A stretch of 64,000 nucleotides of DNA from an uncultured virus (IMG/VR IMGVR_UViG_3300028590_000012) (lineage: Duplodnaviria; Heunggongvirae; Uroviricota; Caudoviricetes), in the IMG/VR virus record IMGVR_UViG_3300028590_000012. One strand, written 5' to 3'. The position numbers and the translations under genes are program-made. Within the stretch, counting starts at the first letter, position 1. Each line of letters starts with the position of its first letter. Below are positions 1 to 12,130 of the stretch, in pieces. The notes beneath the pieces are model-generated. The model did no database searches, had not been told where the DNA came from, and saw only the letters and a program-made list of their open reading frames with translations.

Positions 1-3000
1 AATGAAGTCCAGCGCTTTCTCGGTCAAGAAGTCCGGGAACCCATACTCGTACTTGAAGGCTTCTCCAAGACGGCGATATACGTCATCCACGCTTTCTGCG
101 GGCTTGGAAAGAACGTCTGCAAGGATTGAGTCGAGGGATTGTCCTGCTTCCTGCGTGATCACCTCTTTGAATTTGTCCTGTCCCTCCAGGCCTTTTTCAA
201 ACTGTGAGGCAATTTCCTTATTGGATTCTGGAATGGCGCGTTCCGCCATCGGCGCGACAAGATCTTGATCCAAGTTACCGTTCTTTGCTTGTTCGACAAT
301 ACTTACAAGCTTATCGCGGGTTTCCTCCCAGTTCTTGAAGAACGGACGAACGTCTCGGGACATGCTGGACGCTCTGCCTGTAAGGGCGTTGAGGAAATCC
401 ATCGCGGCATCAACCAGCCGCTCAAACAGGGGCTTGTCTTTCTGCCAGAGTCTCCTCCAGAACTTCCCGTCGTTGAAGTGTGCGCCGATGAAGTCTTCCG
501 TAAATTCATCTGCGGCTTGGAATTCCGAGTAGCCCTTGTTGTTGATCAGGTTGTTCTTGTAGGCCGTCCAGTCGGTGGCGTTATCCAAAACGAACTGCTG
601 GAGATCTTCGTACAGAGCTTTGTTCTTGGCCTTCAGGCTGTGGCCAAACTCGTGGCCGGTAAGGAACATCAATGGGTAGTTTCCATTGACATTGATGTAG
701 ATGGCGTCGGGATTACTCTTTAGGAAGAGAGCAGACGGTGCGGTTGACGGAAGATCCGTAAGGAATACTATACGCTTCCCGAAAATCTTCTCCAGTTCTC
801 CTGCAAATGCGTTGAAGTTTACGTCGTTGCCCAGCACTCGTCTTGCTGCTCTGGCGTCAGTTGGTTCCAGAGTTCGAGTGCTCGCGCCGGATCGGAAGGC
901 CTCAAGGTCGGCATCCCGTCCCGCCTCCGCAGTTCGTCCATTATCTGCCGAAATCCATTTTGACATGGAGCTAACCGCGTCATTCTGCGCAAGAGCTTCG
1001 ATCTCGCCACTGTCCGCAGCGAAGACTCCTTCATCAACGAGTCCTTCATCGGAATAAATCGGTCTGCCTTGCTCAAGGTCTTGGGCTTCAAGCGTGCCGA
1101 CCGTGCTTTCTTGGAATGCTTGTTCATCTTCTGGAGTTGTTTGTCGTGTCGTTTCTGCTGCGGTCTGTTCCTCCACGGGGGCGAGGATTTCGGAAATGTC
1201 GTTGATGCCACGGAGGAATAGGGCCTTCTCCACGTTGGTTCGGTAGCGGGTGATGGTCTTTTTCACCCCTTCTTGGGAAAGCCCCACTTCTGCTCCGATC
1301 TCGCGCAACGATTGTCCACTGGCGTATCCACGGAGAATGGTCCTATCTCTCTCGCTGGCCTGCGACATGACGGCTTGCAGAGCCTCTCGCGCCACTCCTT
1401 GCATCCTCTTGCGGTCATTTTCTGCGATGGTGGTTTCCTGTGGAAAGGGCGCTGTGGAGACGATGGTTTCCACGTCATCATCCTCCATCACAGGTCGGTC
1501 TGGGGTGACGTACTTACTGCGGATCTTCCTGCTCTTGGCGTAGTCCCGCATGTGGTTGCGGATGATACCTGCCGCATACTGAGGGAATGAAACGCCCTTG
1601 GCAGCATCGTAGGACTTGGCTGCTTTGACCAAGCCTTGCACCGCTTCACTCTGGCGGTCATTGAAATCGGTTCCAGGAATGTTGCTGAACTGACGGGCAA
1701 ATAGGGCCGTCAGCCCAAGAGGCTTGAAGGTGTCTGTTTCTTGGAGAAGCTGCTGCTGTTCGGGAGTGAGCGGAGTAACATCAATCCCCGCGTCCGACTC
1801 AAGTTCCTGCGTGGCCTCTACCAGCGCCTTGGCCTCTGCGGCCTCACTGGCGTTGGGGTTGGTGATGGTTTCCGACCAGCTACCGCTTTCCGCCATTGCG
1901 GCGACAGCGCTTTCACCAGAATCAAGGGCGGATTCCGAAACCACCAATAGTGTTGTATCTTTACCGCCACCGTAAAAGTATTCGTTCAGCCTAACCGAGT
2001 CATATCCAGCGTTGGCAATTCTGGCCGACAGTTCCTGTAAATTATTAGCCAGGGATTGTGCAAGCTCTTCGTCCTTCGCAAATTTAATGCCTGTTGTATT
2101 TACTCCTCCACTCTCTAACAAACGCTTGAGTTCTTGCGAACCAGAATCAAAGTCTGCCGATACCTCAGTTAAGTCTAAAGTGTTTTTTGGAAACACTCTA
2201 ATCTCTTTTGGATTAGCTCCAAAATTGGATGCGTATTCTGGATTTGATGCTGCGTAGAAGGGAACCTTCGGAATCCCATCATAAGAGTTTCTCGTGGCGT
2301 GGTATAGCGTCTCCCCACTCCGCATAGGAGCCGATCCTCCTCTGGACTCAATAATCGGAGCACCAGCCAAGGTGAACGCATTCTCAACGGCGCTGTGTAG
2401 AAGGGATGTCTGTGCCGCAGGCTTGTTGAACAATAGCCTTGCGATGGCGTTGACGAAACGCTGCCACAGGGTTTGCTTCTGTCCGGGGCGCACTCGGTCC
2501 AGCTTCTTGCGGAAGCCTGCGTTGGAGAATGCCTCGGCAACCATTTCTTCCACGTTGCTGATACCGTATTCCCCTTGAAACTCTGGCATGGCAGAGATTT
2601 CCTTGTGAATGGCTACAAGTTCGTCGTACGCCTTGCGGGCTTCTCCGGTCAGTTTCTCGGGATTGCGGATCTGGTCGAGGGTTACCCGATGGCTGGCCTC
2701 ATGGAGGATGGATAGTGCCGCTCCGGGGTTCCTGCGGGCGAGGTTGATGAGAGTTGCGGGGGTTTCTCCTCCGACATAGAGCGCACTCCAGGAACTATCA
2801 GGACGGTTGACGGCCTGAATATCCATGGCCGTTCCGAGCGCTAGGAGCCTCTTGGAAAGCGTTTTCGCCCAGTCAGGGGTAGATTTGCTGTCCGCGATCT
2901 TTTGGAGAACCTTGGTGGCTGTGGCATCCTCGTCAAAGACTCCCAGTTCGGAGAGTTCGTTGAACAGCGGAATGTTAACGCTAGGCAATGGCGCAGCGTT

Positions 3001-5184
3001 CGTGAGCGGGACGCCTTGGTAGGGGTCCGGTTCTGTGGAGATTTCCGTAGCGGCTTCTGCTTTGGCTTGCTGCTTGGCCGGAAGCTTCTTTATCGCCTTT
3101 TTGACCCGCTCGCTCTTGGGCTTTACGTAATGAGCAATGTCGTTCCGCTCAATTACTTGTGTCTCTCCTGTGCGGTCATTTACAACCTCGAAAGAATGCT
3201 CGTCGTTAGCACGTTCCGCCTCTGTTTGCGGGAGAGCGCGAGTAATGGTGAACGTCTGAGGATTTCCACGCAACTGGACACGCTGGGGCTGCTGTTGGGC
3301 TGGTTCCGTAGCTCCTGTACTTGCAGTAGGTGCTTGCTGAACTCCTTCTGGGACATTTGGCTGATCTTGCTGGATCGGAGGGTTTTCATTGACCGCTACC
3401 TCTTGGCCTTGCGCTTCACTGAGTACGCTATCGCTAATGCTTGCTTGCGCGGTTTCCCGGCCCTCAATTCCGTCTTCAGGTTGGACTTGAAGGCCTTCTT
3501 GCTGGGTGACTGTTTCAATGGCATTGGGTTCTCCTTCTGGTTGTGCTGTCGTGATCTGCGCTTGGGCAAGTGCAACATCCGCTAGAGCAGGTGTCTCTCC
3601 TGCCGCAAGGGCTTCTTCCACCCTTGCTCTGGCGGCTTGTTGCTCAGATTCGACAGGCAAATCTGCTTGTGTATCACCGACAGGGGTTTCGTTAACGACA
3701 ACGGGTTCAGAAAGGGGTTGCTCCGTCCCGGCTTCCGTTTCCACCGCTGGAGTTACGGCTGGGGTTGGAGCAAATTGGGTTTCCTCTGTAGCCTGAACAT
3801 GGGCTTCTAGAGAGGGCTTGGAAAGGTCTGCTGCTGGAGTTGAAAGCAGTTCGTCGATGACGCTGGCAGATTTGCGCTGGGACTCGATCCTGTTGTCAGT
3901 GACTTCTGCGGCTGCGATTTCCACCACGGCCTCGGCTGCCGCTGGAGAATCATTAGCCTCAAGGTTCTTAGCCTGGACTGCGGCTTGTTGAACAATAGCT
4001 GTTTCTTTGGCTGATGCCGCGCCAGCCACTTGTGCAACGGTAGTTCCACCTAATCCCACTGCTGCTCCAACTAGGACGGAACTTGCAACATCCTTTGTCA
4101 GGGGTCGCTCTGGGTCGTACTTCTCAAGTTGCTTGGCAACCGTGTTGAGCCAAAGTTGCTGTGTTCCCTCAGTTCCACCTTCCTGAGCGCCTTGCTTGGC
4201 AATTTCTGAAAGGGCTTGTCTGATCGTGGACTTTCCCTCCATGGCGCGAAGGGTTTTCCCCACGAGAAGCTTATCTGCCAGGACTTCCAGGGGGCCGGAT
4301 ACCGCCACGTATTCCTTGGCTGCTGCGTGGGCTTTTTCTGGAGTTGCTCCCGACTGGATCGCATCATCGTAACCCTCTTGGTAGAGCTGCCCAATAGCCA
4401 TCGCTGGGCCAAGACCCGGCACCGCATAGGCCGGGATATTGGCGAGTTGACCGATACCTTGGGCAGCTTGTCCTAGGAATGTGCTTTGAAATTCATCGCT
4501 GACTGGGAGAGCTTGGCGCGCACCTTCCCGCATTCCAGAGGCTTCATTGGCGGCTGTTTCGAGAAATCCTCCAACGTCTCTCCGTGCCTGCTGTGCTTCC
4601 GGGGTTACCGCAAGGTTCTCAATGCTCCCTGGAGTGGTGAGACGGGTAAGGTCTGCTTCCGCCGCAGCCTTATCCAGACCCACCTGGGCCTTCTGGGATT
4701 CGGCATCCTGTGGGGACATCCGACCCTCTTTCACCATGTCATCAATCATGGTGATGGTTTGGTCGAATCCTGCGACCTTCTCCTTGGCTCGGGCCAGCGG
4801 ATCAGCTTCAGAGATTTCCTGACCCAATCCACGGTAGATGCCTTCTGAGGACATCAACACGCCCTCGGACGTAGCTCCCCTGGCGATGGCTGGAAAAACA
4901 TTCCCTATACTGTCTTCAAGGCTGTTGGCAACATTCTCTAAGAAGTTGGTTTCCGGGAGCTTGGATGCGGCCTGAATCTCCTTCAGTTTTGCCGCTGTGG
5001 AGGTATGGAACTGGTCCTGAATGGCGGCATCCTGCCATGCCCCTACAGAGTCTCCATAGGAACGGGTAGCTTTGGCCCAATTCCCAAGCGTGATGGCCTT
5101 GTCCTCGGGGGATAGCTTCTGAAACTCCTCGTTTGTTTCAACCTCCTGCCAAGACGGCGGGGCAAGGATTTCCTCGGTGGGCAT
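1..5184 (-). CDS. Giant virion/internal (ejection-type) protein, >1700 aa, C-terminus beyond the window edge
   Basis: ATG at 5184 (MPTEEILAPPSWQEVETNEEFQKLSPEDK...). The frame was spot-checked as open and no ORF in this frame appears in the track, consistent with running off the edge. Ala/Glu/Gln-rich; follows other structural genes. Confidence 0.75.
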   Translation of the reverse strand, partial: MPTEEILAPPSWQEVETNEEFQKLSPEDKAITLGNWAKATRSYGDSVGAWQDAAIQDQFHTSTAAKLKEIQAASKLPETNFLENVANSLEDSIGNVFPAIARGATSEGVLMSSEGIYRGLGQEISEADPLARAKEKVAGFDQTITMIDDMVKEGRMSPQDAESQKAQVGLDKAAAEADLTRLTTPGSIENLAVTPEAQQARRDVGGFLETAANEASGMREGARQALPVSDEFQSTFLGQAAQGIGQLANIPAYAVPGLGPAMAIGQLYQEGYDDAIQSGATPEKAHAAAKEYVAVSGPLEVLADKLLVGKTLRAMEGKSTIRQALSEIAKQGAQEGGTEGTQQLWLNTVAKQLEKYDPERPLTKDVASSVLVGAAVGLGGTTVAQVAGAASAKETAIVQQAAVQAKNLEANDSPAAAEAVVEIAAAEVTDNRIESQRKSASVIDELLSTPAADLSKPSLEAHVQATEETQFAPTPAVTPAVETEAGTEQPLSEPVVVNETPVGDTQADLPVESEQQAARARVEEALAAGETPALADVALAQAQITTAQPEGEPNAIETVTQQEGLQVQPEDGIEGRETAQASISDSVLSEAQGQEVAVNENPPIQQDQPNVPEGVQQAPTASTGATEPAQQQPQRVQLRGNPQTFTITRALPQTEAERANDEHSFEVVNDRTGETQVIERNDIAHYVKPKSERVKKAIKKLPAKQQAKAEAATEISTEPDPYQGVPLTNAAPLPSVNIPLFNELSELGVFDEDATATKVLQKIADSKSTPDWAKTLSKRLLALGTAMDIQAVNRPDSSWSALYVGGETPATLINLARRNPGAALSILHEASHRVTLDQIRNPEKLTGEARKAYDELVAIHKEISAMPEFQGEYGISNVEEMVAEAFSNAGFRKKLDRVRPGQKQTLWQRFVNAIARLLFNKPAAQTSLLHSAVENAFTLAGAPIIESRGGSAPMRSGETLYHATRNSYDGIPKVPFYAASNPEYASNFGANPKEIRVFPKNTLDLTEVSADFDSGSQELKRLLESGGVNTTGIKFAKDEELAQSLANNLQELSARIANAGYDSVRLNEYFYGGGKDTTLLVVSESALDSGESAVAAMAESGSWSETITNPNASEAAEAKALVEATQELESDAGIDVTPLTPEQQQLLQETDTFKPLGLTALFARQFSNIPGTDFNDRQSEAVQGLVKAAKSYDAAKGVSFPQYAAGIIRNHMRDYAKSRKIRSKYVTPDRPVMEDDDVETIVSTAPFPQETTIAENDRKRMQGVAREALQAVMSQASERDRTILRGYASGQSLREIGAEVGLSQEGVKKTITRYRTNVEKALFLRGINDISEILAPVEEQTAAETTRQTTPEDEQAFQESTVGTLEAQDLEQGRPIYSDEGLVDEGVFAADSGEIEALAQNDAVSSMSKWISADNGRTAEAGRDADLEAFRSGASTRTLEPTDARAARRVLGNDVNFNAFAGELEKIFGKRIVFLTDLPSTAPSALFLKSNPDAIYINVNGNYPLMFLTGHEFGHSLKAKNKALYEDLQQFVLDNATDWTAYKNNLINNKGYSEFQAADEFTEDFIGAHFNDGKFWRRLWQKDKPLFERLVDAAMDFLNALTGRASSMSRDVRPFFKNWEETRDKLVSIVEQAKNGNLDQDLVAPMAERAIPESNKEIASQFEKGLEGQDKFKEVITQEAGQSLDSILADVLSKPAESVDDVYRRLGEAFKYEYGFPDFLTEKALDFI
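3396..3524 (-). CDS. Small basic protein nested in another frame of the giant ORF
   Basis: MPLKQSPSKKAFKSNLKTELRAGKPRKQALAIAYSVKRKAKR resembles a common small phage protein type (MPLKK...GKPQKQAIAIA). Confidence 0.6.
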   Translation of the reverse strand: MPLKQSPSKKAFKSNLKTELRAGKPRKQALAIAYSVKRKAKR

Positions 5185-6927: not shown

Positions 6928-7439
6928 GGAGTATTGGTGAACAATACGTACCCATACTGCAATTGAAGTGCAAGAAGGAAAAGCTTGTGCCGAATTGGGA
7001 GGAATCTAGGAATTTTTCCTAGAACCCCGAACCACCAACTCCAGTTCCACCCTAGAAATCCACTCCAGAACTTTCTTTCGTGAATCAGTGTGAATGTCTT
7101 TCATATCGGTCCTCACTGGCATCATGTCCGACATATATCTCTGAAGGAACCCTGTTGATACCGATGCGGGGATAGGGCCATTTGAAACCAGCGCCGAGTT
7201 AAGATCCACAAATTCTTTCCCAAGAAGGACGGTCTGAATGATTTTCGTGATCATGGAAGGAATTCCTGACATAGGAAATTCGCTGACTCAATCTCCATTT
7301 CTATTCCCGACATCGGCGGACTTACGTGGACGAAAAAACTTTCCCCTTGCGCTCCTTTGGGGGAGTGGTATGGTCGCCTTGCTCGTTCGGGTCGCATCCG
7401 AAGGATAACACTTTCCAAAGCCGGTTTAACCGGAAGAGG

Positions 7440-7471
7440 CCCGGAGGATGCGACCCTCCGGGTTTTTCTTT
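7440..7471 (+). terminator. Intrinsic terminator
   Basis: CCCGGAGG-loop-CCTCCGGG followed by TTTTTCTTT. Confidence 0.7.
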
Positions 7472-7543
7472 GGCATGAAGCGCAAGCAGTTCCCCAAAGA
7501 GACTCAACGAGTCGTTAATCCCTTTCAGCGTCATTGTGGGGAC

Positions 7544-7573
7544 AAAAAGATCGGGTAGCACTTTATATCCCGA
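7544..7573 (-). terminator. Probable terminator ending the tRNA/HNH operon
   Basis: Minus strand TCGGG...CCCGA followed by TCTTTTT. Confidence 0.45.
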
Positions 7574-7585
7574 GCACTGGCCTCT

Positions 7586-7866
7586 GAACCTGAAACACGG
7601 AGAACGGAGAAGCCTTTGAACCCGCAGATCGAGATCGAGGTGGAACCTCGCCCCGTCATTCCCGTAAGGGAGGGCATAATCACGTCATCCTACGCATTAC
7701 CACATGACCGAGTGCGCAGAGTGCTACTGGACGTGATCCAGTATAGAATCTGGTATGTTCGGAAACTTCAAGCGACCCACAACCGCGTTTCAGTTCTTAG
7801 CTCCCGTGTAACATCGGGGGCACTATGCCCGTGTTCTTCTACAATTTCCCCTCCCGGTTTCAGTCG
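7586..7866 (-). ncRNA. Candidate structured ncRNA downstream of the HNH gene
   Basis: Long-range helix GAACTGAAACGCGG/CCGTGTTTCAGGTTC encloses ATCACGTC/GACGTGAT, CTGCGCA/TGCGTAG and CGAGG/CCTCG; G-U pairs favour the minus strand. Confidence 0.4.
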
Positions 7867-7879
7867 TATGAAAATAACT

Positions 7880-8458
7880 CTACGACAAGAAATGATTCCA
7901 GTCCTGAACTCCATGCTTGTTCCTGATGAACAAGCTGACAGGAAGCTCCTTTGGGGCTTGTGGAGCACGGGAAAGCTTCAGTCCTGCTTCCTGTGGAAGC
8001 CTGTCAGCTTTCCTGCTATTCACCTTTTTATCAGCAAGAACGCAATTCTCCCAGGATGTAGCTCCTCCCTTTGATCGAGGAAGTACGTGGTCAATATTCG
8101 CTTCTTCGGGAGATAGTTTTCTTCCAGTGTATTGACAGATTCCATTGTCCCTTTCCCAAATTGTCTTGGATGAAAGCTTTGGTCGCTTCTTTGGAACCTT
8201 TGCGTAGTTGCACAGAACAATCACAGTGGGAACCCGAATCGCCATTTTTGAAGTATGTACTGCACAGTCAGTTTCCCTTACTGGCAGCTTCATCCAGTCA
8301 GTCCACTTTACGGCCTGCATGTTCTGACCATCTATGTCCAGTGCTGTGGCAACGTCCGTTGCGAGCATACAGATTGCTTCTGCAACAGTTTTGGTGTGGA
8401 TGGGCTGCCAAGATCGGTTCAGGACAAGAACCGTTGGCTTGTGGAGGATGTCTGTCAT
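7880..8458 (-). CDS. HNH endonuclease (McrA-like, tRNA-array-associated type)
   Basis: VLVLNRSWQP...IWERDNGICQYTG...IDHVLPRSKGGATSWENCV...NSRKADR. Confidence 0.9.
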   Translation of the reverse strand: MTDILHKPTVLVLNRSWQPIHTKTVAEAICMLATDVATALDIDGQNMQAVKWTDWMKLPVRETDCAVHTSKMAIRVPTVIVLCNYAKVPKKRPKLSSKTIWERDNGICQYTGRKLSPEEANIDHVLPRSKGGATSWENCVLADKKVNSRKADRLPQEAGLKLSRAPQAPKELPVSLFIRNKHGVQDWNHFLS

Positions 8459-8491
8459 AAATTCGTTAGTCTGTTCTTCTTGTTTTCGAAA

Positions 8492-8569
8492 TGGTGGAAG
8501 CGGACGGAGTTGCACCCTCACCTTGCCGGTTAAAAGCCGGATATGCTTGTCTGTTAACACTACGCTTCC
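8492..8569 (-). tRNA. tRNA-Lys(TTT)
   Basis: GGAAGCG/CGCTTCC acceptor, loop CTTTTAA, CCA. Confidence 0.85.
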
Positions 8570-8574
8570 TGAAA

Positions 8575-8650
8575 TGGTCCCTCATCCCGGTAATGCTCCG
8601 GGCACAGTGCTTTTTGAGAACACTCGGTCTGCTATTGCCATCAATGAGGG
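8575..8650 (-). tRNA. tRNA-Leu(CAA), short variable arm
   Basis: CCCTCAT/ATGAGGG, loop CTCAAAA, A73-CCA. Confidence 0.75.
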
Positions 8651-8651
8651 A

Positions 8652-8727
8652 TGGTCCCCATGATTGGTCTTGCACCAACACATTACATCCTTCTCGGGGA
8701 TGCTCCTCTGCTTTGGGATACATAGGG
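8652..8727 (-). tRNA. tRNA-Leu(GAG), short variable arm, C33
   Basis: CCCTATG/CATGGGG, CATCC-CCGAGAA-GGATG, CCA. Confidence 0.75.
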
Positions 8728-8730
8728 AAA

Positions 8731-8806
8731 TGGTACCGCCGACCGGTGCTGCCCCGGCTCGCTCCTCCTTGAAAGGGAGGCAGACATGCTGTTGTCCATC
8801 AGCGGC
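8731..8806 (-). tRNA. tRNA-Glu(TTC)
   Basis: CCTCC-CTTTCAA-GGAGG, CCA. Confidence 0.8.
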
Positions 8807-8812
8807 ATAAAT

Positions 8813-8886
8813 TAGAACCCGAACATGGACTCGCACCATGACTTGTCCTCGTTCAAAGCGAGGGTGACTACTTTGCCGACTCGGGT
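8813..8886 (-). tRNA. tRNA-Gln(TTG), ends CTA rather than CCA
   Basis: CCTCG-CTTTGAA-CGAGG. Confidence 0.75.
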
Positions 8887-8888
8887 AT

Positions 8889-8981
8889 TGGTCCTCCTGC
8901 TAGGTAACGCTCCTAGACTCGGCCCACTTCAAGGACTACTGACGATTATAAGTCGTCCGGTTCTCTTTGAACTACAGGAGG
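8889..8981 (-). tRNA. tRNA-Ile(TAT) with long variable arm
   Basis: CCTCCTG/CAGGAGG (same 5' acceptor strand as Ile-GAT), GACGA-CTTATAA-TCGTC, ~24-nt variable region. Confidence 0.8.
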
Positions 8982-8984
8982 AAA

Positions 8985-9071
8985 TGGCGGATCGCAGAGG
9001 ACTTGCACCCCATGCCCGAAGGCATCATCTGTTTAGCAAACAGCGAAGGCACCTTGGCCCCTATACGATCC
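8985..9071 (-). tRNA. tRNA-Ser(GCT)
   Basis: Loop TTGCTAA, long variable arm, G73-CCA. Confidence 0.85.
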
Positions 9072-9075
9072 AAAA

Positions 9076-9149
9076 TGGCTGGGCTCCGTGGATTCGCACC
9101 ACAACGACCTGTTTCAGAGACAGGCAGGCTACTATTACCTCAGAACCCA
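9076..9149 (-). tRNA. tRNA-Gln(CTG)
   Basis: CCTGT-CTCTGAA-ACAGG, G73-CCA. Confidence 0.8.
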
Positions 9150-9155
9150 ATAAAA

Positions 9156-9228
9156 TTGGATAGGAGTGTGCTATCCGCTACACCAACGAGCCGAAGCCCG
9201 TGTTGGATTCGAACCAACGCTTCTCCAA
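9156..9228 (-). ncRNA. Circularly permuted tRNA mimic (YrlA/Y-RNA-like module)
   Basis: Order is T arm GTTGG-TTCGAAT-CCAAC, acceptor ACGGGC-TTCG-GCTCGT closed by UUCG, D arm GTGT-AGCGGATA-GCAC, open stem GGAG/CTCC. Confidence 0.75.
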
Positions 9229-9230
9229 GA

Positions 9231-9305
9231 TGGAGGGAATCGAGAGACTTGCGCTCTCCTCTCAGGTTTACAAAACCCGTGCATCGCTTTCTATGCTTGA
9301 AACCC
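9231..9305 (-). tRNA. tRNA-Thr(TGT)
   Basis: CGGGT-TTTGTAA-ACCTG, CCA. Confidence 0.8.
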
Positions 9306-9309
9306 AAAA

Positions 9310-9395
9310 TGGCGGTCAGCGGAAGTATCGCGCTCCAAACCCGAAGGTTCCTTCCGTTTTCGAAACGGAGTCCATGCTTCATGGATTCACTAACC
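9310..9395 (-). tRNA. tRNA-Ser(CGA)
   Basis: TCCGT-TTCGAAA-ACGGA, long arm, G73. Confidence 0.8.
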
Positions 9396-9399
9396 AAAA

Positions 9400-9474
9400 T
9401 GGTGGTTCGCCACGGTACTGCCCCGTGTTCTCAAGGTTAAGAGCCAAGTGCATCACTTCGTATGCTTGCGAACC
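9400..9474 (-). tRNA. tRNA-Lys(CTT)
   Basis: GGTTCGC/GCGAACC, loop CTCTTAA, mismatched anticodon stem. Confidence 0.8.
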
Positions 9475-9476
9475 AA

Positions 9477-9563
9477 TGGCGGTTGATGGAGGTATTGCGC
9501 CCCAAGGATTGCTCCTCCACCTGTTTTCCAAACAGGGACAGCCCCTTGACTGTGCCACCAACC
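9477..9563 (-). tRNA. tRNA-Ser(GGA)
   Basis: CCTGT-TTGGAAA-ACAGG, long arm, G73. Confidence 0.8.
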
Positions 9564-9566
9564 AAA

Positions 9567-9792
9567 TTCAGACAATAGCCGCGATTCTGTAACCCTTTCG
9601 GGGTTCATCATTCGACTGACGATTTCTCGCCGGGAGTATTAACTTCCCCGCACCAACCCGCCTTCTCAGGGAAGCACTACCCTCAGGCTGTTTGGCTTGC
9701 TGATACCACGTAGTAAAAACGGACGAATCCTCCTACGGCTGCTTTTCAGTCGCGAACTTCCTCACCATTGCTGGCGCGATGAACTATCTGAA
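9567..9792 (-). ncRNA. rnpB: Minimal bacterial-type RNase P RNA (~226 nt; catalytic domain intact, S-domain largely missing)
   Basis: P1 TTCAGATA/TGTCTGAA; P2 GTTCATC/GATGAAC; P3 CGCCA-GCAA-TGGTG; GAGGAAGTTCGCGAC and ACAGAATCGCGGCTAT (P4); AGCAAG-CC-AAACAG...GGGTTGG-TGC (P15 with GGU); P18 GGCGA-GAAA-TCGTC; P19 CCC-GAAA-GGG. Confidence 0.85.
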
Positions 9793-9793
9793 A

Positions 9794-9869
9794 TGGAGCC
9801 CAAGGTCGGATGTGCGCCGACCATCTCCCGCTTACCGAGCGGGCGCATCGCTATCTATGCTTCATGGGC
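9794..9869 (-). tRNA. tRNA-Thr(GGT), C33
   Basis: CCCGC-TCGGTAA-GCGGG, CCA. Confidence 0.8.
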
Positions 9870-9874
9870 AAAAA

Positions 9875-9948
9875 TGGTCCGTGACCCCAGAGTTGCACTG
9901 GGCCTGCATCTTTCACAGAGATGAATGCTTCTGCTACACTATCCACGG
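9875..9948 (-). tRNA. tRNA-His(GTG), A73, no encoded G-1
   Basis: CATCT-CTGTGAA-AGATG, ACCA end. Confidence 0.8.
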
Positions 9949-9949
9949 A

Positions 9950-10017
9950 TGGAGCCTCATCTGGCATCTCAGCCAGCACGCCTATTTACGAAACAGGACT
10001 AGGATCTTACATGAGGC
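9950..10017 (-). tRNA. tRNA-Thr(CGT), reduced D arm
   Basis: GCCTCAT/ATGAGGC, CCTGT-TTCGTAA-ATAGG, only 68 nt. Confidence 0.65.
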
Positions 10018-10020
10018 AAA

Positions 10021-10099
10021 TGGCGCTCCGAGTAGGACTTGCACCCACAACCACATCGGTTCGAAGCCGAGTATGCAAAAGCTCTTACACCTCCGGAGC
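10021..10099 (-). tRNA. tRNA-Arg(TCG)
   Basis: Loop CTTCGAA, GCTCCGG/TCGGAGC, CCA. Confidence 0.8.
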
Positions 10100-10103
10100 A
10101 AAA

Positions 10104-10177
10104 TGGTGTTCCTGCCGAGATTCGCACTCGGGGCTGTACCTTCGCAGGGTACCGTGATTCTGCTTCACTACAGGAAC
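10104..10177 (-). tRNA. tRNA-Arg(GCG)
   Basis: GTACC-CTGCGAA-GGTAC, GTTCCTG/CAGGAAC, CCA. Confidence 0.85.
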
Positions 10178-10178
10178 A

Positions 10179-10253
10179 TGGTGCCCTACCCCAGTGCTGC
10201 CCTGGGTCATCCGCTTTGGAAGAGCGGCATCATAGCTGGTAGATCAGTAAGGC
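10179..10253 (-). tRNA. tRNA-Gly(TCC), A73
   Basis: CCGCT-CTTCCAA-AGCGG. Confidence 0.8.
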
Positions 10254-10269
10254 TTGTTGAACAATAAAG

Positions 10270-10344
10270 TGGCCGTTGGAATCCGTAACGCTCGGATCTC
10301 TGCGGTTCTTCAGACCGCCGCACATCTGTCTATGCCATCCAACG
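10270..10344 (-). tRNA. tRNA-Phe(GAA), G73
   Basis: GCGGT-CTGAAGA-ACCGC. Confidence 0.8.
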
Positions 10345-10348
10345 AGAA

Positions 10349-10422
10349 TGGTCCTCCGGGGTGGTACTGCCCCACCGTCTTGCGTTTATCAAACGCGGAT
10401 TCTGCTTTTGAACTACAGGAGG
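10349..10422 (-). tRNA. tRNA-Ile(GAT)
   Basis: Loop TTGATAA, CCTCCTG acceptor, CCA. Confidence 0.85.
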
Positions 10423-10423
10423 A

Positions 10424-10497
10424 TGGTGCCCAGCCGAGGAATCTCACCCCGTCTTCAGCTTTGTAAGAGCCGCTCGCTAATGTTACAACAGCCGGGC
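10424..10497 (-). tRNA. tRNA-Val(TAC)
   Basis: CGGCT-CTTACAA-AGCTG. Confidence 0.8.
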
Positions 10498-10500
10498 AAA

Positions 10501-10573
10501 TGGTGGCGGGGGTGGGAGTCGCGCCCACGGAGGCAAGCTTATGAGACTCGCTGGAATACTCATTCTCCCCGAC
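10501..10573 (-). tRNA. tRNA-Met(CAT) (initiator/elongator/Ile2 status unresolved)
   Basis: CGAGT-CTCATAA-GCTTG; fMet-like CGGGG/CCCCG acceptor. Confidence 0.75.
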
Positions 10574-10579
10574 ATAAAA

Positions 10580-10656
10580 TGGTGCCTGTGGCAGGATTTG
10601 CACCCGCAACCTCTGCGTTCTAAGCGCAGCGCCTCTGCTGGTTGGGCTACACAGGC
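10580..10656 (-). tRNA. tRNA-Leu(TAG), short variable arm
   Basis: GCCTGTG/CACAGGC, CTGCG-CTTAGAA-CGCAG, variable loop AGGTT. Confidence 0.85.
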
Positions 10657-10662
10657 ATAAAA

Positions 10663-10737
10663 TGGCGACCTCACCGGGTAACGCTCCCGATATTCCACCT
10701 TGAGAGGGTGGCGTCTCATCTTTTCGACTTTGAGGCC
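10663..10737 (-). tRNA. tRNA-Glu(CTC)
   Basis: CCACC-CTCTCAA-GGTGG. Confidence 0.8.
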
Positions 10738-10738
10738 A

Positions 10739-10805
10739 TGTTCCCAAACGGTAACGCTCCGTTTCATCAGACTTAGGAGGTCCGAGCCCGTCTATTGGTG
10801 GGAAC
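10739..10805 (-). tRNA. tRNA-Arg(CCT), reduced D arm, no encoded CCA
   Basis: GTTCCCA/TGGGAAC, CGGAC-CTCCTAA-GTCTG. Confidence 0.65.
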
Positions 10806-10811
10806 GGAAAG

Positions 10812-10887
10812 TGGCGGTTGAGACGGGTGCTGCCCCCGCTCGGTCCAGCTTGACGGGCTGGCATTGATGCTGTTCAAACTCTCAACC
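10812..10887 (-). tRNA. tRNA-Asp(GTC), C33
   Basis: CCAGC-CCGTCAA-GCTGG, G73. Confidence 0.8.
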
Positions 10888-10888
10888 G

Positions 10889-10974
10889 TGGCGGGTCACT
10901 GAGGTATCGCGCCCCAAGCCTTTCGGCTCCATCCGTTTTCAAGACGGCGACAGGACTTTCCTGTTTAATGACCC
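10889..10974 (-). tRNA. tRNA-Ser(TGA)
   Basis: Loop CTTGAAA, long arm, G73. Confidence 0.8.
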
Positions 10975-10978
10975 AAAA

Positions 10979-11053
10979 TGGCACCAGCACTTGGAGTCGC
11001 ACCAAGCTCGTGCGGTTTAACAGACCGACTGCGCACTCCGCGCATCTACTGGT
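10979..11053 (-). tRNA. tRNA-Asn(GTT)
   Basis: Loop CTGTTAA, G73-CCA. Confidence 0.8.
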
Positions 11054-11054
11054 A

Positions 11055-11121
11055 TATCCCATCACGGTAACGCTCCGTGCCTGAGTCTTTAGAAGAGACT
11101 TGTCCGTCTATCGGATGGGAT
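11055..11121 (-). tRNA. tRNA-Arg(TCT), reduced D arm, no encoded CCA
   Basis: ATCCCAT/ATGGGAT, AGTCT-CTTCTAA-AGACT. Confidence 0.7.
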
Positions 11122-11125
11122 GAAA

Positions 11126-11201
11126 TGGTCGGGCTACTGGGACTCGCACCCAGGATGTTCTGATCCCAAATCAGACGGATTAGCTGCTATCCTACAGCCC
11201 G
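11126..11201 (-). tRNA. tRNA-Pro(TGG)
   Basis: C1-G72, TCTGA-TTTGGGA-TCAGA, A73. Confidence 0.85.
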
Positions 11202-11202
11202 A

Positions 11203-11287
11203 TGGTGTATGGGGTCGGTAACGCTCCGACACAGTGCTAAGACGACGGGTTTACAGTCCGCGAGGCTCACTTTTGCCCAGCCCATAC
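11203..11287 (-). tRNA. tRNA-Tyr(GTA)
   Basis: Loop CTGTAAA, long variable arm, A73. Confidence 0.8.
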
Positions 11288-11288
11288 A

Positions 11289-11366
11289 TGGACTCCGTGG
11301 CGAGATTTCCACTCGCAAACCCTGAATTTTAAGAACAGGAGGTTTGGTAATTACCGTCACACGGAG
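11289..11366 (-). tRNA. tRNA-Leu(TAA), short variable arm, weak anticodon stem
   Basis: CTCCGTG/CACGGAG, loop CTTAAAA. Confidence 0.65.
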
Positions 11367-11380
11367 GTTGATTGTTAAAA

Positions 11381-11456
11381 TGGTGGAGATGAAGAGATTC
11401 GCACTCTCATAATCGCAACTTGCAAGGTTGGAGCATCCTCGTCTAGCCACATCCCC
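11381..11456 (-). tRNA. tRNA-Ala(TGC)
   Basis: G3:U70 pair, loop CTTGCAA. Confidence 0.85.
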
Positions 11457-11466
11457 ATTTTGAAAT

Positions 11467-11542
11467 TGGAGGCCAACCCCAGACTCCCACTGGGTAAATC
11501 GCGCTTTGCAGGCGCACGCTTCGAGTCTTTAGCTTGTTGGCC
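11467..11542 (-). tRNA. tRNA-Cys(GCA)
   Basis: Loop CTGCAAA, U73-CCA. Confidence 0.85.
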
Positions 11543-11543
11543 A

Positions 11544-11615
11544 TGGCAGGTTGCCTCAGTGCCGCCCTGAGCGGGATCGGATTTGGAGTCCAATCTGCAC
11601 GCTGGTGCGCAACCT
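11544..11615 (-). tRNA. tRNA-Trp(CCA)
   Basis: AGGTTGC/GCAACCT, loop CTCCAAA, G73. Confidence 0.8.
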
Positions 11616-11620
11616 ATAAC

Positions 11621-11691
11621 TGCGGTCGGCGGGAATTGCACCCGCATCTCATCGTTGGCAACGACAAATCCTGCTATTGAACGACGACCGC
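11621..11691 (-). tRNA. tRNA-Gly(GCC), A73, no encoded CCA
   Basis: GCGGTCG/CGACCGC, loop TTGCCAA. Confidence 0.85.
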
Positions 11692-11788
11692 GTGAAAACA
11701 AAAAGAACAGACCTTTCTCATTCCTGAGCCCACAGGTATTTCGCGGTGGTGTTTCGGAGATTCGGGCTCTCCTTCCAATCTGGCCCTT

Positions 11789-11850
11789 AAAATGAAAAAC
11801 CCTACTGGCTTGTTAGCGAGCAGGGTGAAAATGTTTTCTTGTGCTCGCTA
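11789..11850 (-). promoter_or_regulatory. Transcription attenuator (antiterminator/terminator switch)
   Basis: Terminator CCCTGCTCGCT-AACA-AGCCAGTAGGG-TTTTTCATTTT. TAGCGAGCA (11850-11842) pairs perfectly with TGCTCGCTA (11822-11814) in the terminator 5' arm. Confidence 0.8.
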
Positions 11851-11851
11851 G

Positions 11852-11950
11852 TTATTGACGCATCGGTTCTGCATTACGCAGGATGGAGCAATAATCTCCC
11901 GTCCAGATAAACTGGCTTTGGGATTTTGAATGCGAGGTTGTCTTGAACAT
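11852..11950 (-). CDS. Leader peptide of the tRNA operon (32 aa)
   Basis: MFKTTSHSKSQSQFIWTGDYCSILRNAEPMRQ*; the stop lies 1 nt before the antiterminator strand. Confidence 0.75.
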   Translation of the reverse strand: MFKTTSHSKSQSQFIWTGDYCSILRNAEPMRQ

Positions 11951-11956
11951 GGATGA

Positions 11957-11986
11957 AGTATTGTGCTAAACCATCAGGAATGTCAA
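11957..11986 (-). promoter_or_regulatory. Sigma70-type promoter of the tRNA operon (probably leaderless)
   Basis: TTGACA-N18-AATACT-N6-ATG. Confidence 0.55.
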
Positions 11987-12130
11987 CTGCATTCATTTCA
12001 TGACGACGAATTCCACACCCACACCCGAAAACCCCCGTAGCGAGCCTCCTACGCGCAAGGAAGGCCATCCCAGAAACTATCCCAGCGGTATCCGTGAGGA
12101 TCGCCCAGAAGACGATGTAGAGTATGACAC

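Follow-up and report, generated by a model that had tools for sequence, protein, structure and literature searches.

The question raised by this locus is whether the parts of a phage-borne transfer RNA (tRNA) operon, which also encodes a ribonuclease P (RNase P)-like RNA and a tRNA-shaped RNA, form one purpose-built machine or a mosaic of modules that exist independently of each other. The locus lies in 64,000 nucleotides (nt) of DNA from an uncultured virus (IMG/VR IMGVR_UViG_3300028590_000012; Caudoviricetes), the whole of which is here called the window. In this soil phage a tightly packed, same-strand and operon-like unit of ~4.4 kb occupies the minus strand (11986..7880). Read 5' to 3' on that strand, a promoter-like site, a leader open reading frame (ORF) and two hairpins are followed by the tRNA array and an HNH endonuclease gene, and the RNase P-like RNA and the permuted tRNA-like RNA are interleaved among the 36 tRNA genes (Table 1). 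An initial annotation, made from the sequence, had read the unit as a self-contained backup tRNA system with parts fitted to each other. The anatomy that it described is borne out, namely the leader ORF and hairpins, 36 tRNAs with an altered elbow, an RNase P RNA without its specificity domain (S-domain), a mimic whose elbow is canonical, and the HNH gene. The interpretation reached here is a different one, as the unit is probably a phage-borne tRNA operon of the L-array type, built of three separately distributed modules and provided with translation-sensing control. The module shared with Verrucomicrobiota chromosomes would consist of a leader-peptide attenuator, an accessory tRNA array with A18 and G55 in the elbow and a 3' HNH gene, the array amounting in the phage to a full elongator set (36 genes) without an initiator. 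Another module would be a 226-nt RNase P RNA with the catalytic domain only, of a family common in phage tRNA arrays, and the last a 73-nt, YrlA-like permuted tRNA-shaped RNA that recurs in phage tRNA arrays.

A relaxed, coordinate-based cloverleaf scan resolves 36 units on the minus strand (11691..8496) with all 20 amino acids represented, the same number as had been claimed. Applied to the array, standard finders report nine genes (ARAGORN), and seven at gathering score or nine at E<1e-3 (Rfam). The 36 genes are contained in 3.2 kb, with T-rich spacers mostly of 0-20 nt, and CCA is encoded by 32/36 (NCCA; two Ser genes are counted with the register shifted by 1 nt). The units have the cloverleaf of RF00005 (7-bp acceptor, 5-bp anticodon stem with a 7-nt loop, and T-arm), a few with reduced D-arms, and in the relaxed scan the acceptor stem is fully paired (7/7) in 30/36. 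With respect to tRNA identity rules, G3:T70 is present in Ala, the variable arm is long in Ser and Tyr, and the discriminator bases are mostly as expected. The stems, intact in most units, the G3:T70 in Ala and the long Ser and Tyr arms are evidence against pseudogene decay. By standard wobble rules the 36 anticodons would read all 61 sense codons. An initiator tRNA is usually recognized by an unpaired 1:72 position and a run of G:C pairs in the anticodon stem, and none of the 36 units is of this type; the sole CAT tRNA is not initiator-like because its 1:72 is paired and its anticodon stem lacks the G:C run. The 67 window ORFs scanned against Pfam include no RnpA, aminoacyl-tRNA synthetase, CCA-adding, RtcB or TROVE protein. 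‘Self-contained’ is too strong a term for a unit lacking an initiator-type tRNA in a window in which no RnpA, synthetase or CCA-adding protein is found among these ORFs.

The most consistent feature of the array is its elbow. The G18-U55 contact is near-universal and among the most conserved tertiary contacts of tRNAs, and the canonical elbow of RF00005 (G18, G19, U54, U55, C56) is not found here. Position 2 of the T-loop (nt 55) is G in 36/36 tRNAs, with U55 and TTC both at 0/36, as anticipated by the claim of an altered elbow. Position 3 (nt 56) is C in 32/36, T54 is present in 17/36, and the 54/58 combinations are T/A (17), A/T (7), G/G (6), C/A (5) and C/C (1). Only 4/36 D-loops contain ‘GG’. 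An ‘AG’ is instead seen in the D-loop of 31/32 tRNAs with C56 versus 1/4 of those without, the G56 tRNAs (Cys, Leu-TAA) having ‘AC’ and the A56 tRNAs (Val, Thr-CGT) ‘AT’. These patterns may be read as A18/G55 substituting for G18/U55, with the 19:56 Watson-Crick pair retained via matched changes.

The same elbow is encountered in bacterial arrays next to relatives of the HNH gene. Such relatives number 5,625 at E<=1e-10, of which 579 were confirmed in genomes, and the best 80 of these 579 all belong to Verrucomicrobiota (60-67% identity), Chthoniobacter flavus Ellin428 included. Close HNH relatives were not found in viral contigs. In all locus comparisons 3-7 kb either side of each match was viewed. 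Scanned strictly for cloverleafs on the HNH strand, the best 80 loci give 223 tRNAs, among which 201/223 have G55 and 176/223 encode CCA, and 13/80 loci hold at least 8 tRNAs; the same scan on the window gives G55 in 22/22. The C. flavus locus (L057) has no tRNA within 7 kb by the strict scan on one strand. In the Verrucomicrobiae genome with locus L065 the array has G55 in 29/29 tRNAs, the dispersed tRNAs are canonical (TTC/GG elbow) in 29/29, and the RNase P RNA is full-length (175.9 bits). The same T-loop classes recur across distant arrays. The elbow change does distinguish accessory from housekeeping tRNAs in a related host lineage.

Within the array, 9795..9560 searched alone aligns globally to the bacterial type A RNase P RNA model RF00010 (model 1-367) with 23.9 bits and E 5.6e-6 (246-nt search); an Rfam search of 5.6 kb at E<=10 did not report an RNase P RNA. 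The aligned RNA has P1-P5, J5/15-P15, the distal hairpins and J18/2, and both universally conserved P4 strands are aligned, with the bulged U. P1 (9792-9785 pairing with 9574-9567) and P3 are read by eye only. The S-domain is missing, a 38-nt stub taking the place of 154 model positions. It is this domain (P7-P14) that docks the tRNA elbow, and the alignment thus agrees with the earlier claim of an RNase P RNA lacking the elbow-reading part. At 226 nt, versus about 370-430 nt for bacterial type A RNAs, and encoded within a phage tRNA array, the RNA differs markedly from the type it resembles; among archaea, Pyrobaculum has a type T RNA that is similarly poor in S-domain. Scanning viral contigs by pattern yielded 4 loci sharing this core at first and 30 in the end (2/30 duplicate others), some of them on contigs of 300-500 kb. 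None of these relatives is closer than 61% identity to the window, and the stub in place of the S-domain ranges over ~30-90 nt. In a 19-sequence alignment (A2) helices P2, P4, P5 and P15 are 90.2% paired versus 25-45% with the partners slid, changes on both sides are seen in 18/30 pairs, and the covariation score is 0.464 versus 0.03-0.09 in the slid controls. P4 (helix 3) has 8 pairs with 98% of cells paired over the 19 sequences, and 5 pairs with both-side changes. The family is, on this sequence evidence, apparently widespread in phage tRNA arrays.

The tRNAs accompanying these ribozymes are mainly canonical. In a strict scan blind to loop sequence, over 3 kb each side on the ribozyme strand of the 30 viral loci, 162/185 tRNAs have TC at T-loop positions 2-3 and 11/185 have G55 (L014 8/18, L022 2/24, L031 1/16). 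Conversely, ribozyme and mimic motifs were found in 0/80 of the Verrucomicrobiota loci. A covariance model of the ribozyme 5' two-thirds (R1), run over 1.02 Mb, matches only the window and the viral mimic-bearing locus L039 (43.6 bits), with matches in 0/80 bacterial loci and none in the tRNA array of Nostoc PCC 7120. One viral contig, L039, carries a miniature RNase P RNA and a permuted mimic (L039:634-773, L039:2501-2551) among canonical tRNAs. A permuted transfer-messenger RNA (RF04321, 105.8 bits) is located at L014:5378-5712 (-), in the viral array with a miniature RNase P RNA and mixed elbows.

The permuted RNA folds into a 5-bp closing stem enclosing a T-arm (TTCGAAT loop), a 6-bp UUCG-capped hairpin and a D-arm (loop AGCGGATA), with a folding energy of -24.1 kcal/mol (z -1.7). 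Its T-loop is canonical, its D-loop contains GG and an anticodon loop is absent. Among Rfam families it best matches the tRNA-like domain of YrlA (RF02553, model 30-81/114), at 19.7 bits and E 0.028 in a 101-nt search, which is below the gathering score of 69. Fold and match show the architecture of a permuted tRNA mimic as proposed and, with TTC in 0/36 of the tRNAs, the mimic is indeed the only part to keep the host-type elbow. As in YrlA, a T-arm, an acceptor-like hairpin and a D-arm follow in order, the T and D loops are canonical and the two ends of the RNA lie at the anticodon-stem position. Unlike YrlA, it has no recognisable Ro60-binding helix (model 1-29 and 82-114 unmatched), the window has no TROVE/Ro60 gene among its 67 ORFs (Pfam), and the mimic sits inside a tRNA array whereas YrlA adjoins the Ro60 (rsr) gene. 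The accessible part of Chen et al. 2014 (PMC4201824) describes YrlA in phages next to Ro60, and TruB, DusA and in one case RNase P acting on it. A pattern scan gave six viral loci (4 distinct sequences) that keep the order of the mimic and whose middle hairpin and T-stem carry compensatory changes, all six located inside tRNA arrays. The tRNAs of viral mimic-bearing arrays are canonical (10/10, 9/9 and 4/4). Weak full-length YrlA-like matches (31-33 bits; gathering score 69) are also present at L035:123-239, L036:2624-2734 and L036:2755-2905, in viral tRNA arrays shared with the short mimic.

Upstream of the array, a short ORF stands directly 5' of an intrinsic terminator and is accompanied by an antiterminator that excludes it, the 3' strand of hairpin A overlapping the 5' strand of hairpin T. 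The leader ATG is 7 nt past the -10 hexamer, and the leader mRNA would be leaderless, with transcription starting near the A of the ATG at 11950. The diversity of the leader (19 amino-acid types in 32 codons) is unusual relative to all stop-free 32-residue windows of the window (P=0.003) and to a pooled null (P=0.0016). From the leader stop to the terminator hairpin there are 26 nt. The antiterminator duplex with the terminator 5' strand has -14.9 kcal/mol (shuffle P 0.02), and folding predicts the terminator once the first 13 nt that follow the leader stop are masked; from footprint size, a ribosome at the ORF end would mask the antiterminator. The T-run is ~100 nt from the first tRNA, with no other minus-strand promoter-like site between them. 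The terminator hairpin is conserved 5' of arrays or array remnants at L052, L060, L065, L084, L108, L119 and L122. In 6/6 examined Verrucomicrobiota loci with it, the stop of a 34-55-codon ORF falls 25-35 nt short of the hairpin. These six leaders contain 19, 20, 17, 20, 19 and 16 amino-acid types (P versus the pooled null, in the same order, 0.048, 0.0028, 0.36, 0.011, 0.087 and 0.21). The peptides of window and bacterial loci align around a common central motif, the frame staying open despite nucleotide divergence, and a segment within ~30 nt of the stop is complementary to the terminator 5' strand in 7/7 (-13.8 to -21.5 kcal/mol, shuffle P 0-0.054). The attenuator idea of the initial annotation has thereby gained comparative support, and we lean towards reading the leader and hairpins as a translation-sensing attenuator. 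At L052, L084, L108 and L122 the leader-terminator and the HNH gene are kept with only 0-3 detectable tRNAs between them, which suggests eroded arrays or tRNAs missed by the strict scan. No leader was seen at the viral miniature RNase P loci, in stretches that do not reach the array boundaries. The small hairpin at 11756..11772 has a counterpart at L065:1385-1401, with an identical loop, a covarying 5-bp stem and ~76% likeness of the flanking sequence over 51 nt, and both are placed between terminator and first tRNA.

Leader-peptide attenuators control the trp, his, leu, thr and ilv amino-acid operons. A short ORF, a terminator with a U-run and an exclusive antiterminator whose 5' strand is within reach of a ribosome at the stop are common to these and to the phage leader. 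In contrast, tRNA genes would be controlled here, the leader samples 19/20 amino acids without single-residue repeats, the mRNA is possibly leaderless, and there are two hairpins rather than four segments, so absent translation should also give read-through. In the mechanism proposed, transcription would begin at or near the leader AUG. Smooth translation to the stop would cover the antiterminator strand, so that the terminator forms and little array RNA is made. Slow or absent ribosomes, following tRNA loss or other translation stress, would let the antiterminator form and the whole array be transcribed. The polycistronic RNA would then be cut to tRNAs, the embedded ribozyme adding 5' processing, probably with host RnpA, and the resulting tRNAs would sustain translation.

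The only DNA near-identical to the window comes from soil metagenomes, with 13 soil DNA runs; the whole unit has no match among GenBank phages (blastn, distant mode), and a metagenome pattern scan gave 9 short contigs with 0 close relatives of the window. A 73-kb contig from one soil run is collinear with window 7412-8462, 9307-10840 (ribozyme) and 11359-12100 (leader) at ~91-96% identity, several tRNA-sized segments being replaced and the stretch 9073-9306 (Gln, mimic, Thr) being without alignment. In a low-depth contig from a second soil sample (run X2), 9474 is joined to 9793 with 8 other letters between, which skips tRNA-Ser(GGA) and the RNase P RNA gene. These replaced and skipped segments give a weak hint that ribozyme, mimic and tRNAs may be exchangeable modules.

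A view closer to the initial annotation is that of an integrated system, in which the S-domain was lost to suit the rewired elbows, the mimic lures away a host factor that reads or attacks host-type elbows and the cassette is a counter-defence against tRNA-cleaving immunity. All parts do reside in one tightly packed same-strand unit, an S-domain-less ribozyme should by established RNase P biology ignore elbow sequence, an elbow-reading factor could separate canonical housekeeping tRNAs from a G55 array, and L039 combines mimic and miniature RNase P. However, the co-occurrence check on related contigs showed the parts to occur separately, and the idea that they are fitted to each other finds little support in it: the miniature RNase P stands mainly beside canonical tRNAs, it is absent from all 80 Verrucomicrobiota loci, one G55-array genome has a normal RNase P RNA, and the mimic family belongs to canonical arrays. 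The 73-kb relative keeps the RNase P and leader regions, at ~91-93% identity, with the mimic stretch unaligned, and the 67 window ORFs show no tRNA nuclease or defence link by Pfam. The integrated view is accordingly held to be quite unlikely. By the same comparisons, S-domain loss is apparently not an adaptation to G55 substrates, nor do G55 tRNAs seem to need the miniature ribozyme, and the contrast between a canonical mimic and a G55 array appears to be particular to this phage. Because each part occurs elsewhere without the others, the unit looks like a module mosaic and not like a single purpose-built machine. A related and still unlikely proposal is that A18/G55 tRNAs are an orthogonal, stress-induced reserve set: an elbow-reading nuclease, toxin or modification-dependent factor would disable canonical tRNAs, ribosomes would stall on the leader and open the attenuator, and the G55 tRNAs would escape and bring translation back, the phage having captured the Verrucomicrobiota module and added an elbow-blind RNase P, for processing while the host is shut off, and a decoy RNA with a canonical elbow.

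Several observations weigh against the module-built operon with translation-sensing control, and most of them belong with one of three further explanations. The conserved hairpin with its T-run could be a plain terminator that shields the array from transcription arriving from upstream, the short ORF being untranslated and no attenuator existing. A Shine-Dalgarno sequence is absent in the window and in 5/6 bacterial loci. The promoter that had been claimed exists as a promoter-like site at the head of the unit, with a match no better than chance (4 such sites in the region versus 3.4 expected), and therefore it is the position and not the match quality that counts. Two of the seven leaders are not unusually diverse (P 0.36, 0.21), and the leaders are related so that the diversity P values are not independent. 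The leader-array link is less tight in the bacterial loci, because the terminator is 400-640 nt 5' of the first tRNA found at 4 loci, which leaves room for a separate promoter, and no tRNA at all is detected at L108 and L122 by the strict scan. The Nostoc array is, in the accessible text of its description, regulated via promoter direct repeats (PMC8421152). Nonetheless, the ORF end is 25-35 nt from the hairpin in 7/7 cases, with an alignable peptide motif and a frame open despite divergence, the stop-proximal complementarity also holds in 7/7, and in the window the T-run is close to the first tRNA with no promoter-like site between. This makes the insulating terminator possible but doubtful. 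It is improbable that the RNase P-like RNA is inactive, either as a relic or as an RNA titrating RnpA or pre-tRNA that is carried along in phage arrays. The score is far below the Rfam gathering score of 100, the S-domain is missing and C-domain-only constructs reportedly have lower efficiency (PMC5839562), and the X2 contig skips the gene. Furthermore, the 18 relatives in the covariation test were picked by conserved motifs, so that invariant motifs are partly selected; the covarying pairs themselves were not part of that selection. Yet the core motifs are invariant in 19 diverged members with compensatory changes in P4, P2 and P15, which a relic would not keep, and the family is present in 30 viral loci. 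The last explanation, in which the HNH endonuclease has spread the array as selfish cargo, now decaying, and pseudogene drift has altered the loops, appears very improbable. It would account for the impaired units (5/7 acceptor pairs in Thr-TGT, a weak anticodon stem in Leu-TAA, four genes without CCA) and for the bacterial loci with leader and HNH but 0-3 tRNAs, and HNH-linked arrays are called horizontally mobile in the accessible parts of PMC8421152 and PMC6582537. Also to be weighed against the module-built operon are that 50/80 Verrucomicrobiota HNH loci are without tRNA (strict scan, one strand) and that the cloverleaf scanner is home-made, its strict version recovering 22/36 of the window tRNAs. 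Drift is, however, at odds with G55 in 36/36 and its matching D-loop partner, with 30/36 fully paired acceptor stems and a complete amino-acid set, with the Ala G3:T70 and the long Ser and Tyr arms, and with the same loop classes in distant arrays.

The module-built operon has its nearest known counterpart in the L-array on plasmid delta of Nostoc PCC 7120. Both consist of tens of closely spaced same-strand, supernumerary tRNA genes, many encoding CCA, with a neighbouring HNH gene of the same protein family (33.5% identity, E 5e-16). According to Santamaria-Gomez et al. 2021 (PMC8421152), translational stress induces the Nostoc array, which is consistent with the attenuator logic proposed for the phage, where induction under such stress is suggested by the attenuator architecture only. 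The two differ in that 16/18 Nostoc tRNAs are canonical and 2/18 have G55 (with window loop types) versus 36/36 in the phage, and in the 3' HNH, embedded ribozyme and mimic and apparent leader-peptide control of the phage array. In the available text of PMC8421152 the terms ‘T-loop’, ‘G18’ and ‘RNase P’ do not occur. From mycobacteria, PMC6582537 describes clusters of ‘structurally different tRNAs’ that are linked to HNH genes and were acquired by horizontal transfer. With a phage-encoded set of this size, translation could continue after depletion or cleavage of the host tRNAs. In vibriophages and mycobacteriophages, tRNA sets reportedly offset lost host tRNAs, with escape changes in the anticodon loop, whereas the systematic change here is at the elbow.

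Table 1. Features of the phage tRNA operon and its flanks (window coordinates).
Feature	Position	Strand	Remarks	Basis
Promoter-like TTGACA-18-AATACT	11957..11986	-		10/12 consensus matches
Leader ORF	11852..11950	-	32 codons + stop; 19/20 amino-acid types, no Val	
Antiterminator hairpin A	11814..11850	-	9-bp stem, 2 nt after leader stop	-15.4 kcal/mol
Terminator hairpin T + T-run	11790..11828	-	overlaps hairpin A 3' strand	-15.8 kcal/mol
Small hairpin	11756..11772	-	7-nt loop GCCCGAA	conserved
tRNA-Gly(GCC)	11622..11691	-	T-loop TGCAATT; CCA not encoded	ARAGORN, Rfam, relaxed scan
tRNA-Trp(CCA)	11548..11615	-	T-loop GGCGGCA; short D-arm	relaxed scan
tRNA-Cys(GCA)	11471..11542	-	T-loop TGGGAGT (G56); D-loop AC	relaxed scan
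tRNA-Ala(TGC)	11385..11456	-	G3:T70	Rfam E<1e-3, relaxed scan
tRNA-Leu(TAA)	11293..11366	-	T-loop TGGAAAT (G56); short variable arm; weak anticodon stem	relaxed scan, score 16, weakest unit
tRNA-Tyr(GTA)	11207..11287	-	long variable arm; T-loop AGCGTTA	relaxed scan
tRNA-Pro(TGG)	11130..11201	-		ARAGORN, Rfam, relaxed scan
tRNA-Arg(TCT)	11056..11121	-	66 nt; reduced D-arm; CCA not encoded	relaxed scan
tRNA-Asn(GTT)	10983..11053	-		relaxed scan
tRNA-Ser(TGA)	10893..10974	-	long variable arm; T-loop CGCGATA	relaxed scan
tRNA-Asp(GTC)	10816..10887	-	T-loop GGCAGCA	relaxed scan
tRNA-Arg(CCT)	10740..10811	-	reduced D-arm; CCA not encoded; by eye 7-bp acceptor starts 10805	relaxed scan
tRNA-Glu(CTC)	10667..10737	-	T-loop AGCGTTA	relaxed scan
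tRNA-Leu(TAG)	10584..10656	-	short variable arm	ARAGORN, Rfam, relaxed scan
tRNA-Met(CAT)	10505..10573	-	sole CAT tRNA; not initiator-like	relaxed scan
tRNA-Val(TAC)	10428..10497	-	T-loop TGAGATT (A56); D-loop AT	relaxed scan
tRNA-Ile(GAT)	10353..10422	-	T-loop GGCAGTA, identical to Nostoc PCC 7120 array Ile-GAT loop	relaxed scan
tRNA-Phe(GAA)	10274..10344	-	T-loop AGCGTTA	ARAGORN, relaxed scan
tRNA-Gly(TCC)	10183..10253	-		relaxed scan
tRNA-Arg(GCG)	10108..10177	-		ARAGORN, Rfam, relaxed scan
tRNA-Arg(TCG)	10025..10099	-		Rfam, relaxed scan
tRNA-Thr(CGT)	9954..10017	-	64 nt; 6-nt T-loop TGAGAT (A56); small D-arm; D-loop AT	relaxed scan
tRNA-His(GTG)	9879..9948	-	A73; G-1 not encoded	ARAGORN, relaxed scan
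tRNA-Thr(GGT)	9798..9869	-		relaxed scan
Miniature RNase P RNA, bacterial type A architecture	9567..9792	-	226 nt	RF00010, family alignments, covariation, model R1
tRNA-Ser(GGA)	9482..9562	-	long variable arm; possible 1-nt register shift gives 3' GCCA	relaxed scan
tRNA-Lys(CTT)	9404..9474	-		relaxed scan
tRNA-Ser(CGA)	9315..9394	-	long variable arm; possible 1-nt register shift	relaxed scan
tRNA-Thr(TGT)	9235..9305	-	acceptor paired at 5/7 positions only	Rfam, relaxed scan
Permuted tRNA-like RNA	9156..9228	-	73 nt	fold, YrlA RF02553, 6 viral loci
tRNA-Gln(CTG)	9080..9149	-		ARAGORN, Rfam E<1e-3, relaxed scan
tRNA-Ser(GCT)	8989..9071	-	long variable arm	relaxed scan
tRNA-Ile(TAT)	8893..8981	-	24-nt variable region	ARAGORN, relaxed scan
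tRNA-Gln(TTG)	8817..8886	-	CCA not encoded	ARAGORN, relaxed scan
tRNA-Glu(TTC)	8735..8806	-		relaxed scan
tRNA-Leu(GAG)	8656..8727	-	short variable arm	relaxed scan
tRNA-Leu(CAA)	8579..8650	-	short variable arm; T-loop AGCATTA	relaxed scan
tRNA-Lys(TTT)	8496..8569	-		Rfam, relaxed scan
HNH endonuclease gene	7880..8458	-	192 aa from ATG	Pfam HNH_4 (E 2.8e-9), HNH, HNH_5
Region after HNH, alleged structured RNA + terminator	7544..7879	-		neither supported

Some individual tRNAs depart from bacterial norms in ways other than the elbow. Bacterial tRNA-Leu normally has a long variable arm, and all four tRNA-Leu genes of the array have short variable regions of 4-6 nt. Both tRNA-Arg genes reading AGR codons (TCT, CCT) measure 66 nt; they do not encode CCA, and their D region is reduced and for the most part unpaired. 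In having A73 and lacking an encoded G-1, the tRNA-His is at variance with the identity set usual in bacteria. Bacteria rarely read AUA with a TAT anticodon. According to the part of PMC6582537 that is accessible, a horizontally transferred mycobacterial tRNA cluster likewise has a tRNA-Ile(TAT). A weak tRNA-like fold at 11799..11714 (relaxed scan, score 15.5) is better read as the terminator tail together with the small conserved hairpin.

At the other end of the unit, the HNH gene that had been placed at the array 3' end is confirmed by its Pfam HNH_4 match. The parts that were to follow it are not: the ‘candidate structured RNA’ (7882..7540) folds no better than shuffled sequence (z -0.20; 37/100 shuffles fold as well) and has no Rfam match, and no minus-strand terminator-like site was found in the scan for the final terminator placed at ~7544. 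The remaining content of the window is phage-like by Pfam, with a DnaB helicase, DUF551, DUF3560 and a tail enzyme of the GDSL/K1-lyase type. The window edge cuts a giant ORF (window 1-5184, minus strand; >1,727 aa), which matches sigma-70 region 2 (E 4.9e-7) and, weakly, a LuxR-type helix-turn-helix.

A literature search, outside subscription journals and supplements, found no phage-encoded RNase P RNA, no A18/G55 tRNA arrays and no leader-peptide control of tRNA arrays. As far as the searchable literature goes, there is thus novelty in a phage RNase P ribozyme reduced to its catalytic half, in complete tRNA sets with A18-G55 for G18-U55 and the 19:56 pair kept, and in leader-peptide attenuation of tRNA genes by a leader sampling nearly all amino acids. 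If the proposed reading is true, the attenuator would adjust the supply of tRNAs by sensing translation capacity in general, and the miniature ribozyme would represent a natural minimal RNase P of the bacterial type. The G55 tRNAs would constitute a natural second tRNA population, told apart at the elbow, and would be relevant to tRNA recognition, to anti-phage tRNA nucleases and to orthogonal translation. The link to Verrucomicrobiota may offer a possible test system.

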